The translations under genes and the position numbers were made by a program. Shown here one piece after another: positions 3,036 through 49,042 of a stretch of 64,000 bases of DNA; within the stretch, counting starts at the first letter, position 1; each line of letters opens with the position of its first letter. Under the pieces are notes generated by a model that was not told the DNA's origin, searched no databases, and saw only the letters and a program-made list of their open reading frames with translations. The DNA comes from a virus: positions 77,676-141,675 of IMG/VR virus record IMGVR_UViG_3300000976_000011; one strand, written 5' to 3'.

Positions 3036-3866
3036 CTACTCATGAGACTTTTCGAATGTGAAACCTAAATCTCTAAGAGATTTACCTATAATAGAGTTAT
3101 CATAAGTTTTATTTAAGTAATTAGATTTCTGATAAAATGTTTTAGTGATAACTCTATTATTTTTACAAAAATCTCTTATTTGTCTAATACTTAATAGTCC
3201 GTTTGAAACATCTATAGATTTTAATGTTTCAAACTTTCCTATAGGGGTAATCCAGTAGCCTTTCCAAGAAGGATTGTTTTTATTAAGAATAGAATTCGAT
3301 ATATTATCCTTATGTTTCTGCGATAAAGAAGAACCTAATTTTGCTAAAGATATATTTTTACTGTGTTCTTTAGATCTAATTTTACCTTTTAATTTTTCTG
3401 AGAGTAATCTTTTAGTTTGTTCTGAAACTTTAGGTTTAGAAAATGCGCTTTTAGACATTTTCGCTTTACTTTCTTTACTATGTTTTCTACCATTCATCGG
3501 GCCTTTAGTTCCAAACCAATGATTGTTAGATCCTTTCATAGAATTTGAATGCTCGAGTCTATATTTTTCAAACAATCTGGAATTAATCTTATTTTTGTAT
3601 TTAGATAAATTACACATATACCATCTTGCTCTTACCATCTTTTCATGATCAAGTCCTTTTGTAAATTTAGGTAATAGAAGGTGAGCTATAAAGTGTTCTT
3701 TTGCCGTCAGCAAGACTAAATTAGTTTTATCATTAGAGCCATTACAAGATTTAGGTATTATATGGTGAGATTCATAATAAGCATCTTTCTTAGATCTTTT
3801 TAGTTTACTTCTAGAATTAATTAGGTTATAATACCAATTATAGTATTTGTTATTTAATATATCCAT
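3036..3866 (-). mobile_element. HNH homing endonuclease (Mob-like) with NUMOD3-type repeats
   Basis: YYESHHIIPKS…NLVLLTAKEHFIAHLLL; HSKESKAKMS repeats. Confidence 0.9.
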
Positions 3867-16804: not shown

Positions 16805-17425
16805 TTACTTAAATTTACAGTTAGAAAAATGATATCTTTTCATATTGCCAGTGCCGCCTTCTTTTCTACAATAAGGGCATTTAATTATTTCTTGAGGCCC
16901 TTTAGATTTTCCCTTACCACTTTTAGACATTTTCTTTCTGGTTTCCTTAGTGTGAGTTTTACCATAAAAAGGATTACCTGAACCCATTCTGTTTTTAGAT
17001 TGATTTAATTTTCTTTCTTCGGAATGTGGAATGTTTGATAAATGGTGCTCTCCTTTCTTTATTTTAAAGCTCGGATGATTCACGCCGCTTATAGACTTCA
17101 CAAATTTTAATCTTGTTTCTTCATATAAGTTAGATTTATATTTTTTATTAAAATTAGACATCATGTTCCAAGCTGCTAGCATCTTAAAAAGAGATTTACC
17201 TTTTGTAAACTTTGTTAACAAAATATGTGCTATATAATGTTCCCTAGCTGAAAGTAGTACTAGGTTCTCAGGATCATCTGAACCGTCCATAGATCTAGGT
17301 ATTATATGGTGTGATTCATAATAAATTTCTGCAGTTTTAACTCGATTAAGCTTACTTCTAGATTCCATTAAGTTATAATACCATTTGGAATATTTGTTAA
17401 TAATAAAATCTCTATGAATAAACAT
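16805..17425 (-). mobile_element. HNH homing endonuclease with NUMOD3 repeats and C-terminal Cys/His knuckle
   Basis: YYESHHIIPRS…NLVLLSAREHYIAHILL; NPFYGKTHTKETRKKMS; CPYC…HFSNC. Confidence 0.9.
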
Positions 17426-17435
17426 ATTTGCTCCT

Positions 17436-17523
17436 TATAAATAAAATTATGAGGGACAGCAATGATGCTCCGTTGTTTCCTTAAGCTACAACTTAAGGAT
17501 TACCTCAATTTTTAATATTTATA
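17436..17523 (+). ncRNA. HNH-associated structured small RNA, copy A, between convergent late promoters
   Basis: TATAAATA…GAGGGACAGC-loop-GTTGTT-[8-bp stem/6-nt loop]-TTACCTC…TATTTATA; same architecture at 47780-47871. Confidence 0.75.
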
Positions 17524-17971
17524 GAAAGTCTGTATTTACCATTCCCTTTTCAGTTAATATAGAAAACTGCCAACCTTTTTTCTTAGCATATATTTTAGCC
17601 GCTTTCCACTTAGCAACATTTATTATATATGTTGTTGCTTTATCCTCCCACTTTTTAGTTTTACGTTTCGGCTTCTTGGGTTGCTGAGTTTGGTCATATG
17701 GCTTAATTTCTACTATAGCTTCTTTAATAATTCCATTCTTATCTCTGAATTTCATATATACATCCATAAAGTACCGGTGAAATTTACCTGTTGTAGGTTT
17801 CTTATAAGGTATCACAACTTCTTCGCTGGACCAAGCAATAACGTTTGGATTTCTATCCATTTTTAAGAAATAGTTCAATTCCCAGCTGCTCCGATATACT
17901 ATTTTTGTATAATCACCTTTATATTTTTTAGGGTTTTTAGGTGTAAATTTACCCTGATGATTAAATAATAT
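17519..17971 (-). CDS. 4: head completion nuclease (T4 gp4-like); start uncertain
   Basis: QGKFTPKNPKKYKGD…IVYRSSWE…WSSEE…HRYFMD…EIKP…NVAKW…ILTE. Confidence 0.9.
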   Translation of the reverse strand: MLFNHQGKFTPKNPKKYKGDYTKIVYRSSWELNYFLKMDRNPNVIAWSSEEVVIPYKKPTTGKFHRYFMDVYMKFRDKNGIIKEAIVEIKPYDQTQQPKKPKRKTKKWEDKATTYIINVAKWKAAKIYAKKKGWQFSILTEKGMVNTDFL

Positions 17972-17972
17972 T

Positions 17973-18458
17973 ATGGATATTGAAGATATTAAAAATAGAG
18001 TCTTTGGACAAGGATTAGCCCGAAGAAATAGATTCCAAGTAGAAATTCCAGGCATTCCTGAGGATTTATTGGCTAGTGAATGTAATCTTCCTGCTTTAAA
18101 TATCAACACAACTCCTAATAGACATTATCCGCCGATGCACCACGTTGCAACTGATATAGTATTTGAAGACTTAGCTATAACTTTTTACGTTGATTCGAAT
18201 TATAACATACGTAAACAATTTCAGCTTTGGATCAATGAAATTATTAATATTCAGGATGGCTCGTGGAATTTCTTTGATGAATATGTAAGAGACATCAACA
18301 TCTCGTTTCAAGATGAAGAGAACGCTGATAAGTTGGAAGTAAAATATATAAATTGCTTTCCGAAGTCTATAGGATCAATCGATAAATCTTATGAATCACA
18401 GAACGAAATACAAACATTTCAAGTAATTTTTTCATATACTCAGTACCAAATACTTTAA
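17973..18458 (+). CDS. 54: baseplate-tail tube initiator (gp54-like)
   Basis: GLARRNRFQVEI…LPA…ITFYVD…FPKSIG gp19-family fold. Confidence 0.8.
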   Translation: MDIEDIKNRVFGQGLARRNRFQVEIPGIPEDLLASECNLPALNINTTPNRHYPPMHHVATDIVFEDLAITFYVDSNYNIRKQFQLWINEIINIQDGSWNFFDEYVRDINISFQDEENADKLEVKYINCFPKSIGSIDKSYESQNEIQTFQVIFSYTQYQIL

Positions 18459-46954: not shown

Positions 46955-47098
46955 TTACAAATCTTTAATATTTTTTAGATCCTTTCTTAGTTGTTGCTTT
47001 TCCTTAGACCTTTTAGAAGACTTAGATTTTGTATGAGCTCCACCCTTCTTCATCAATGGATTTATAGCATGTTTGTGTCTTGGTTTTAGAGTATTCAT
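46955..47098 (-). CDS. 47-aa basic protein (…NPLMKKGGAHTKSK…), not in ORF track
   Basis: Open frame just downstream of the HNH gene. Confidence 0.6.
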   Translation of the reverse strand: MNTLKPRHKHAINPLMKKGGAHTKSKSSKRSKEKQQLRKDLKNIKDL

Positions 47099-47106
47099 AT
47101 TTGTTT

Positions 47107-47769
47107 CTATAATTCGTTAAACCAGAAACCTAAGTCTCTGAATGTCTTACCTATTATGTCTTCCTTAGTACCTATACTTTTTAAATAATTAGAATGACCA
47201 TATGATTTTGAATTTATAACTCTATCAGCATCTTTGCACCATTTATGTATAGTGATAAATGGTAGCATCGGTATATTTTGCTCTGCTTCTAATGATGTAA
47301 TAAATGTTCCGTAGGGAGTTCGATAATTACCTTTATATTTAGGGTGCTTCTTGCCTATTTTAGCCTTAGACATTTTATCTTTAGTTTCAATTGAAATTTT
47401 CTTACCAAAATTGTAGTGATTCTTACCTTTCATTCTTAATGACATATAAATAGAGTAATCTTGGCGCAGACTTTGATATATTTTAGAATTAATTCTAACG
47501 TTTTCGTCTCTATTTGACATAAACATATAAGCACATAACATCTTATAATAATATTCATCCTTTGTAAATTTAATTAGAAGCATATGAGCAATAAAGTGTT
47601 CCCTAGCAGTAAGTAAAACTAGGTTATCGGGCTCATCTGAACCACCTAAAGACTTAGGAGTTATATGGTGAGATTCATAATAAACTTCTTTAGACTTTCT
47701 TCTGTCGAGATTTTTACGTGAGCTACATAGATTAAAATAATGAAAATAGTATTTGTTCTTAATAAACAT
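47107..47769 (-). mobile_element. HNH homing endonuclease
   Basis: YYESHHITPKSLGGS…NLVLLTAREHFIAHMLL; C-terminus shared with 3036-3866. Confidence 0.9.
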
Positions 47770-47779
47770 CTTAGCCCCT

Positions 47780-47871
47780 TATAAATATAATAGTAATGAG
47801 GGACAGCATTAGTTAGCTCCGATGTTGATAATTGTTGGCGCAGTTATCTTACCTCTTCATTATTATTTATA
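47780..47871 (+). ncRNA. HNH-associated structured small RNA, copy B
   Basis: TATAAATA…GAGGGACAGC-loop-GATGTT-GATAATTG/TTGGCG/CAGTTATC-TTACCTC…TATTTATA. Confidence 0.75.
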
Positions 47872-48162: not shown

Positions 48163-49042
48163 AAACGGAAAATTAATATCAGGTATTGTTGAAGATAATG
48201 CTTCAGATCCATTGAAATTAGGTCGCTGTAAAGTAAGATTGTTTGGAATTCATAATGAGAAAAAGGAAGTTGCTGGACCTAAAGGTATTCCAACAGAAGA
48301 TTTACCATGGGCACTGCCGTTATCAAGTTTAGAATCAGGTCTTATGAGTGGATTAGGCACAGGGCCAGTCCGAATAACAAACGGTAGTGAAGTTCTTTGT
48401 TTAGTTAGAGATGATCTTTATCAAGATATAGTTATGATAGGAGTAATTCCAGGCGTTCATATAGAACCAGCGAAGCCTGAAATTGGATTTCAAGATCCAT
48501 CTGGAACTTATCCTTTAGAAGATAGATTAGAAGAGCCAGATACTAATAGACTTGCTCGAAAAGAAAAATTTGATGAAACTATATTATTAGATAAAACAGC
48601 AAGAGTACTAAAAGATATACCTATGAAAGGCGGCGGCTCATGGTCTGAACCATTACCTGTAGATTATATCAATCCTGAATATCCTAAAAATCAGGTAACT
48701 GAAACCGAATCAGGCCACGTATTTGAAATTGACGACACGCCTGGATTTGAAAGAATTTCTACTTGGCATAAATCAGGAGCTTTCGATGAGACAATTAATA
48801 CAGGCGAGCGCATAATAAAAGTTCCTAACAATATGTATATTACTATTGAAGAAGGTGAATTGGCCATCTATTCCGGCGGCGGCATATCTCTTACAGCTAA
48901 ACAAGATATATCAATTTTAACAGAAGGGGCTTTTGCTGTACAAGCAAAAAATGGAATAAAACTGGACTCAGAAACAGAAATCCAAATCCAGTCAAAATTA
49001 AGAACCAGTATAGATGGTGCAAACGTTAGTGTTAATCGCTAG
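48152..49042 (+). CDS. 5: baseplate central spike gp5 (OB fold + beta-helix, no lysozyme)
   Basis: GIVED…DPLKLGRCKVR..G.H…LPWA…YPKNQVTETESGHVFEIDDTPG.ERI..WHKSG. Confidence 0.9.
   Translation: MILKNGKLISGIVEDNASDPLKLGRCKVRLFGIHNEKKEVAGPKGIPTEDLPWALPLSSLESGLMSGLGTGPVRITNGSEVLCLVRDDLYQDIVMIGVIPGVHIEPAKPEIGFQDPSGTYPLEDRLEEPDTNRLARKEKFDETILLDKTARVLKDIPMKGGGSWSEPLPVDYINPEYPKNQVTETESGHVFEIDDTPGFERISTWHKSGAFDETINTGERIIKVPNNMYITIEEGELAIYSGGGISLTAKQDISILTEGAFAVQAKNGIKLDSETEIQIQSKLRTSIDGANVSVNR

Follow-up and report, generated by a model that had tools for sequence, protein, structure and literature searches.

Mobile nuclease genes have to be expressed enough to spread and too little to harm the phage that carries them. 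To our knowledge, control of homing endonuclease expression has been known until now only as gene-by-gene hairpins in T-even phages. Antisense control of a selfish gene is found in IS10, where the promoters face each other and the loop of a structured RNA, RNA-OUT, attacks the start region; this start region lies inside the sense/antisense overlap, and the fold is a single stem-loop. In the T-even phages, the homing endonuclease genes I-TevI, I-TevII, I-TevIII, segB and Aeh1 mobE have hairpins that sequester the ribosome-binding site (RBS), with a late promoter inside the hairpin (PMC2988022). The antisense RNA function of c4 of phages P1 and P7 is summarised in PMC12197685. The same paper cites Millard et al. 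2010 for CfrI of cyanophage S-PM2, an experimentally detected antisense RNA beside a homing endonuclease gene of a T4-like phage, and there the role proposed for it concerns psbA and its intron rather than RBS pairing (PMC12197685). Here we describe a three-way-junction RNA that lies divergently upstream of two HNH genes in the 3′ 64 kb (called the window, the whole stretch analysed) of the 141,675-bp IMG/VR virus record IMGVR_UViG_3300000976_000011, a record with terminal repeats. The element is one of a large family of phage RNAs and probably acts as a programmable anti-RBS scaffold, one loop of which is matched to the start region of the selfish gene beside it. By analogy with the described systems, this RNA would most likely keep the translation of mobile nuclease genes low.

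A sequence-only reading of the window had proposed the same element upstream of two HNH genes, and all features that it listed are present in both copies, base for base. Copy A consists of the following parts, given in nucleotides (nt), base pairs (bp) and amino acids (aa):

16805..17425, minus strand: HNH gene A, an open reading frame (ORF) of 206 aa with Pfam HNH and NUMOD3 matches, encoding a MobE-like homing endonuclease; presumed target of the copy A RNA
17423-17425, minus strand: start codon of HNH gene A
17426..17436, minus strand: translation start region of gene A, mRNA AAGGAGCAAAU-AUG, in which GGAGCA is the reverse complement of 17429-17434
17429-17434, plus-strand letters: TGCTCC, the reverse complement of mRNA GGAGCA
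17436-17443, plus strand: TATAAATA, a T4-type late-promoter motif 7 nt 5′ of P1; presumed start signal of the plus-strand RNA (predicted promoter)
17451-17506, plus strand: three-way-junction RNA copy A (folds, covariance-model matches, covariation)
17451-17460, plus strand: GAGGGACAGC
17451-54/17503-06, plus strand: closing stem P1
17455-57, plus strand: J1/2, GAC
17458-64/17471-77, plus strand: P2, closed by GTTGTT
17465-70, plus strand: L2
17466-17471, plus strand: anti-RBS segment of L2, UGCUCC, with 6 bp of complementarity to GGAGCA in the start region of gene A
17478-85/17492-99, plus strand: P3, TCCTTAAG/CTTAAGGA
17486-91, plus strand: L3, CTACAA, 6 nt
17500-02, plus strand: J3/1, UUA, within TTACCTC at 17500-17506
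17516-17523, minus strand: TATTTATA, which is TATAAATA on the minus strand; presumably the late promoter for the HNH mRNA; it faces the plus-strand promoter across the element

Copy B (47771-47871) has the same layout:

47107..47769, minus strand: HNH gene B, MobE-like with HNH and NUMOD3, 220 aa (ORF, Pfam)
47771..47778, minus strand: start region of gene B, mRNA GGGGCUAA, complementary to L2 UUAGCUCC over 8 bp including one G·U
47780..47787, plus strand: TATAAATA, late-promoter motif
47798..47855, plus strand: three-way-junction RNA copy B with the L2 anti-RBS segment at 47813-47820 (folds and score of the second covariance model, R2)
47864..47871, minus strand: TATAAATA, presumed late promoter of HNH gene B

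The motif GAGGGACAGC occurs only twice in the window, in copies A and B. The P3 stem is swapped from TCCTTAAG/CTTAAGGA to GATAATTG/CAGTTATC, including a U·G pair, and both versions pair, which bears out the proposed replacement of this stem with its pairing kept. A short ORF within copy A (AUGAUG..., 17 codons) was rejected as an alternative, as copy B and the relatives lack it.

Relatives were collected in three scans. A strict pattern yielded 47 loci in IMG/VR, about 17 of them real; a more specific pattern yielded 32 loci in metagenomes; and a pattern with the outer pairs of P1 released yielded at least 117 loci in IMG/VR. Pooled, these gave at least 89 distinct elements from viral and metagenome contigs. 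In genome contigs, the strict pattern found mostly chance matches and at least one real member, in a metagenome-assembled genome of Bacilli. The first covariance model (R1) aligned 97 members, and R2 was built on all 97. Copy A scores 35.3 bits with R1 and 46.4 bits with R2; copy B scores 38.5 bits with R2 (E-value 1.9e-7 in the genome).

On the plus strand, copies A and B and every relative are predicted to fold into the same three-way junction. P1 is followed by GAC in J1/2, then by P2 starting with A-U, G·U and C-G, then by P3, which abuts P2 without a linker, and finally by UUA in J3/1. P1 is GAGG/CCUC in copies A and B and is frequently lengthened by covarying pairs. The RNA measures about 55-65 nt and combines a near-invariant core, GG-GAC-AG...UU-[P3]-U(U/A)A-CC, with two variable hairpins. 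Among the 97 aligned members, 99.2% of the helix cells are paired, compared with 68.1% in shuffled sequences. Double-sided changes occupy 457 cells (127 when shuffled), and the covariation score is 0.79 against 0.15 for shuffled sequences and 0.05-0.14 for slid controls. The outer P1 pairs, once freed from the search pattern, covary as well (GAGG/CCUC, GUGG/CCAC, UGGG/CCCA, CCGG/CCGG and others). In eight members that the model alone had detected, GAC, A-U and G·U are kept, and variation is seen in J3/1 (UUA to UAA), in the third P2 pair and in the inner P1 pairs. The junction is conserved across phage contigs whose local G+C content ranges from 24% to about 60%.

The folding also indicates the strand. 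The second P2 pair is G·U in 96 of the 97 members, including members found only by the model, and about 34 further G·U cells stand against at most 11 non-pairs. In copy B, the folding energy is -22.1 kcal/mol for the plus strand and -14.2 kcal/mol for the minus strand. Because each G·U would be A·C on the minus strand and the copy B minus strand folds poorly, the folded molecule is the plus strand, antisense to the HNH leader, in agreement with the G-U argument of the sequence-only reading.

The L2 sequence can pair with the region in which translation of the adjacent nuclease gene starts. In copy A, UGCUCC stands against GGAGCA of the mRNA, in copy B UUAGCUCC against GGGGCUAA, and in copy D, one of two further copies located upstream of the window, GUUACUC against GAGUAAC. 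It had been proposed that the loop tracks the cognate RBS; this was found for all three HNH paralogs of the genome, with three different matched pairs, and for the family as a whole, in which own loops exceed foreign ones. The comparison of the relatives' loops with neighbouring RBSs, which had been suggested as a check, came out above the foreign-loop level. L2 matches the leader of the divergent upstream gene over at least 6 nt in 41 of 89 members (foreign loops: 5.7%) and over at least 7 nt in 29 of 89 (1.5%). L3 likewise matches the leader of the downstream gene on the same strand, over at least 6 nt in 37 of 87 members (7.4%) and over at least 7 nt in 25 of 87 (1.5%). The cross-combinations (L2 with the downstream, L3 with the divergent leader) stay at background. 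Under a harsher null, which excluded foreign loops shorter than the own loop and scored ties against the own loop, the P values were 2e-4 for the L2 layout and 5e-4 for the L3 layout, with 0.98 and 0.91 for the cross-combination controls. The median distance from the end of the paired stretch to the start codon downstream is 5 nt in the L2 layout and 8 nt in the L3 layout; in some members, for example L024 and L201, it covers the start codon. In the close relatives L026 (CCACUA/UAGUGG) and L032 (CCGCUA/UGGCGG), loop and target have changed together. Across the family, no excess of pairing is seen between the nuclease leader and the start region that it carries.

The same matches could be read from the other strand: the nuclease mRNA leader would then be the functional molecule, and the reverse complement of L2 would be a second copy of the RBS, serving as a standby or decoy site for ribosomes. 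On the nuclease mRNA, the loop is indeed an exact duplicate of the gene's own Shine-Dalgarno (SD) region, and the minus strand of copy A folds well (z = -3.4). However, the conserved G·U and most other wobbles become A·C mismatches on this strand, and the minus-strand fold of copy B is no better than shuffled sequences (z = -0.07). Furthermore, the duplicates run past the SD into gene-specific bases, in L024 and L201 even over the start codon, which a standby site does not need, and same-strand members have a loop that is complementary to the SD and not identical with it. We therefore consider a functional minus strand very unlikely.

The family occurs in two layouts. The divergent one is that of the window, with the targeting loop L2. 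The second, in which the element lies on the same strand as its target and L3 pairs with the SD, goes beyond what the sequence-only reading had foreseen. Among 36 divergent-type relatives, TATAAATA lies 4-9 nt 5′ of P1 in 25, and TATTTAT(A/C) lies 3-13 nt 3′ of P1 in 27. In both window copies, facing TATAAATA motifs border the element, and the same motif is found 5′ of the sheath, portal and scaffold genes of the phage. The possibility that TATAAATA and TATTTATA extend P1 instead of being promoters was rejected because the sequence itself is conserved rather than covarying. Overlapping the plus-strand late-promoter motif, a sigma-70-like match (TAAACA, 17 nt, TAAAAT or TATAAT) lies at 17419-17447 and 47763-47791 on the plus strand; such matches are at chance level in the scan, and the host RNA polymerase could use them for early synthesis of the plus-strand RNA. 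L3 of the divergent-type relatives, which is not their targeting loop, has a loose motif C-N-N-N-A-A (CUACAA, CUCCAA, CGCUAA, CUGUAA, CUUCAA and others).

Same-strand members lie 13-23 nt 5′ of the SD, frequently directly after a major structural gene. In about 40% of them, a small SD hairpin (4 bp or more in 14 of 37, versus 5% when shuffled) carries the target in its loop, so that a loop-loop kiss is implied. Palindromes of at least 4 nt occur in 75% of the L2 loops of same-strand members (25% shuffled), and palindromes of at least 6 nt in 34% (2.8% shuffled).

In the whole genome, R2 finds four copies, A and B in the window and C and D upstream of it, and three of the four adjoin MobE-like HNH genes. 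Copy D (genome 51611-51669, locus L324:1501-1559), with UAA as J3/1, is arranged head-to-head with the third of these genes (195 aa, L324:883-1470), which sits on the opposite strand between genes for a gp45-like clamp and a gp44-like clamp loader. Copy C (genome 42656-42711, locus L323:1501-1556) has nothing but an ORF of 14 codons opposite it, which may be what is left of a lost nuclease gene. For the L2 of copy C (UGUGCUCC), the start region of HNH gene A (GGAGCA) is a better match than that of its own stub. In one contig of the relatives, L299, two copies lie 2.4 kb apart (1087-1147 and 3451-3511), each beside a near-identical 270-aa zinc-finger protein; their L2 loops and start regions are identical and their L3 loops differ.

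The arrangement of these copies suggests another role, in which the plus-strand promoter and a structured leader mainly re-supply and stabilise backbone transcripts downstream of the cassette and the L2 match is secondary. In copies B, C and D, a plus-strand gene follows the element, and the plus-strand transcript would read into it. In copy D this gene is the gp44-like clamp loader gene, separated from gp45 by the inserted HNH gene, and the outward TAATAAATA motif of the cassette would be a renewed source of transcription for gene 44; according to a review on T4, genes next to an invading endonuclease can receive promoters from it (PMC2988022). A lack of termination after the element (see below) would suit such a leader. 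The plus-strand transcript of copy A, however, runs antisense into gp4 and has no plus-strand gene to serve. Protection of a 5′ end needs neither an invariant junction nor a matched loop, yet the match is highly non-random, and the same fold stands in cis before nuclease genes of phages that do not have the divergent layout. We regard re-supply as the main function as quite doubtful.

In the divergent layout, the targets comprise SegE/GIY-YIG (10), DUF7487 (5), HNH/NUMOD3 (3) and TnpB (2) as well as endonuclease I and TnsA-like proteins. Same-strand targets are LAGLIDADG, HNH_3/NUMOD4, GIY-YIG, DUF7487, TnpB, endonuclease VII and DNA methylases, and in addition a group of small proteins following a major tail gene. 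The combination of HNH gene and anti-RBS RNA that had been proposed as a cassette was thus found for HNH genes A and B and the third paralog, but the element is not specific to HNH genes. The TnpB targets (OrfB_IS605 or Cas12f-like; L033:3504-4763 and L270:5468-6688) come from both layouts, so the scaffold also goes with IS200/IS605-type nucleases in phages. Seven same-strand members (L017, L108, L227, L240, L254, L271 and L312) precede a protein of about 110 aa (MKLNIY...GTVED...), encoded directly after a major-tail-like gene on low-G+C, siphovirus-like contigs. This protein may be DUF5055, which was matched by 2 of the 39 targets scanned. According to this subgroup, the scaffold is not limited to selfish genes.

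Upstream of the copy A cassette, the backbone neighbour is the following gene:

17519..18109, minus strand: gp4-like head completion gene with a TnsA-like N domain (Pfam)

Among 80 loci (420 kb) that encode relatives of this gp4, none carries the element. The model is therefore specific, and the element comes with the nuclease cassette and not with the backbone, as had been expected of a mobile cassette. Binding of the RNA by the nuclease, already rated the less likely option by the sequence-only reading, is unlikely because the same core adjoins at least five unrelated nuclease families.

An element that moves with mobile genes might also be a signal at the DNA level, such as a recombination, homing or protein-binding site of the cassette, with no RNA involved. 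The often palindromic centres of the same-strand L2 (75% versus 25%, as above) would resemble the sites of dimeric DNA-binding proteins. Against this, the helices covary through complete changes of sequence and contain strand-specific G·U pairs, both pointing to a single-stranded fold, and the neighbouring nucleases belong to unrelated families with different target sites. We give a purely DNA-level signal hardly any credence.

Returning to the anti-RBS scaffold RNA, we propose the following course of events for copy A. The plus-strand RNA would begin a few bases 3′ of its late-promoter motif (17436-17443) and the HNH mRNA at the facing motif (17516-17523). With the mRNA starting there, its 5′ leader would be fully antisense to the plus-strand RNA, and the two RNAs would overlap across the whole junction. 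The RBS lies beyond the plus-strand promoter, outside this overlap, and would be reached by L2. Pairing of L2 with the RBS would block binding of the 30S ribosomal subunit, and the sense/antisense duplex of about 70 bp may also invite RNase III; either effect would hold the nuclease low. We infer transcription of both RNAs, their pairing in cells and an outcome of repression rather than activation, with repression, possibly helped by RNase III, suggested by analogy and by the geometry of the locus. Our guess is that the invariant junction acts as a rigid scaffold that presents the loop.

Several points weigh against this proposal. The search patterns fixed part of the core nucleotides, so that the invariance of the core is overstated, and the pair counts come from an alignment that had been fitted to the structure. 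The complementary stretches are short, 6-8 bp in the window, and in part of the generic kind found between any SD and anti-SD, and 16 of 89 members have fewer than six Watson-Crick pairs. A terminator was searched for after P1 and the element and none was found, so the plus-strand RNA may belong to a longer transcript, as its leader, and not be a discrete small RNA. The motif TATAAATA occurs 24 times in the window compared with 20.6 expected, which is no excess. Neither the family model nor the core pattern has a match in T4, Aeh1, S-PM2, HTVC008M or CP220, and a BLASTN search of a conserved variant against 50,697 phage records gave no real match and no cultured carrier; the element region likewise had no BLASTN match among phage records. 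Finally, scaffolding alone gives no obvious reason for the strict conservation of the junction, and this leaves room for a sensor or binding function.

Such a function would extend the scaffold proposal rather than replace it. The junction might sense or bind a factor (a small ligand, the ribosome or a host protein) in a riboswitch-like or protein-gated manner, so that the pairing is switched instead of being constitutive. In keeping with this, GAC, the A-U and G·U that open P2, and U(U/A)A are kept at very different G+C contents, also in the members found only by the model; the same-strand element stands in the 5′ leader 13-23 nt from the SD, like riboswitch aptamers; and the 3′ strand of P1 (ACCUC) resembles an anti-SD. 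On the other hand, only about 12 junction nucleotides are conserved while both loops are free to vary, which is little for a pocket, and part of this conservation stems from the search pattern itself. Riboswitch and ribozyme models of Rfam give no match, and the target genes have no metabolic theme in common. Overall, we think a sensing junction unlikely, although it deserves mention. In its fullest form, the junction would be a sensor, catalytic or binding module and the family a signal-gated programmable anti-RBS RNA, whose conserved part responds to a cue from the cell or from the stage of infection and whose loop any selfish gene could retune to its own RBS, in cis or as antisense, with RNA-RNA dimerisation through the palindromic L2 of same-strand members adding a further level of control; to this version, too, we assign only a small chance.

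The phage itself is a distant relative of T4, in which terminase, sheath, portal, scaffold, gp23-like capsid and baseplate wedge genes were found; its capsid protein reaches at most 45% identity to any cultured phage. The proteins of HNH genes A and B are 46% identical over 150 aa and share 36-41% identity with T4-type MobE. Directly 3′ of HNH gene B lies an ORF for a very basic protein of 47 aa, rich in K, R and H (46955-47098, minus strand), with no Pfam match.

A single widespread and portable RNA module apparently accompanies at least five unrelated nuclease families as well as TnpB and orphan methylases. Its specificity is apparently set by one short loop, in two layouts, as a cis leader or as a divergent antisense RNA. 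If the proposal is correct, this would amount to a general rule for the domestication of selfish genes in phage genomes, provide a marker for mobile cassettes in metagenomes and offer a compact natural scaffold for programmable translational repression.

No description of this three-way-junction RNA family was found in Rfam 15 or in the literature searched. The whole window has no Rfam match at the gathering score, and for copies A and B and the relative L003, searches at E-values up to 10 returned chance-level matches only, without C4, c4-2, riboswitch or ribozyme models. The junction strands presumably do not fit the cores of the hammerhead, twister-sister, pistol and hatchet ribozymes either, in line with the negative Rfam scans. 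The text of a catalogue published in 2023, which covers over 10,000 candidate viral RNA structures (PMC10690425), makes no mention of such a motif; its supplements may list it unnamed. A tRNA-like reading was rejected, as ARAGORN found no tRNA-like gene. We also rejected identity with CfrI of S-PM2, given that this phage matches neither the family model nor the core pattern.

The hairpins of the T-even homing endonuclease genes address the same problem, since in both cases translation of the endonuclease is restrained, or here predicted to be restrained, by RNA pairing at the SD, alongside late promoters. Those hairpins, however, are simple, local and gene-specific, with the RBS in the stem, whereas the present family uses one conserved junction beside unrelated nucleases, and in the window the pairing partner is on a separate antisense transcript. 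In the minus-strand folds of both copies, the RBS is unpaired and forms no local hairpin of the T-even type. The minus-strand TATAAATA is located 5′ of the whole element and not inside a hairpin, so that late transcripts would carry all of the element.

With IS10 RNA-OUT, the window copies would share the facing-promoter logic, with sense and antisense transcripts overlapping at their 5′ ends, to judge from the facing TATAAATA motifs, which are predicted promoters. In contrast to IS10, the RBS of gene A (17429-17436) is located beyond the plus-strand promoter and outside the overlap at 17451-17506, and it is matched by a copy in L2; the fold is a three-way junction.

In its working mode, the closest system is c4 of P1. 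The Rfam C4 model (RF01695, cut-off 45 bits) matches P1 c4 at 68.8 bits and is not among the matches listed for copies A and B and the relative at E-values up to 10, so that the kinship with C4 and c4-2 raised by the sequence-only reading was not borne out; conversely, R2 finds nothing in the whole P1 genome at E-values up to 10. Because neither model recognises the other family, we regard the element as an analogue of C4 and not as a member. The closing stem of c4 has about 14 bp and its J3/1 7 nt, compared with a P1 of 4-8 bp with GAC and UUA here. The window RNA is divergent from its target and antisense to the target leader, whereas c4 lies upstream and is co-transcribed; c4 controls an antirepressor operon, the present family presumably mobile nucleases. 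For the present family, nothing points to processing by RNase P. The likeness lies in the design. Both are small phage RNAs with a closing stem and two hairpins, and in both, short segments pair at the RBS of a neighbouring gene. As with c4, covariation of loop and target sets the specificity, here seen in the family statistics and in the three pairs of the genome. P1 c4 (48343-48419) likewise has a closing stem and two hairpins and is situated 4 nt upstream of one target, a2, and 33 nt upstream of the other, b2, which ends 10 nt before icd, at the icd RBS. This layout of P1 closely parallels the same-strand layout, in which L3 is the targeting loop.

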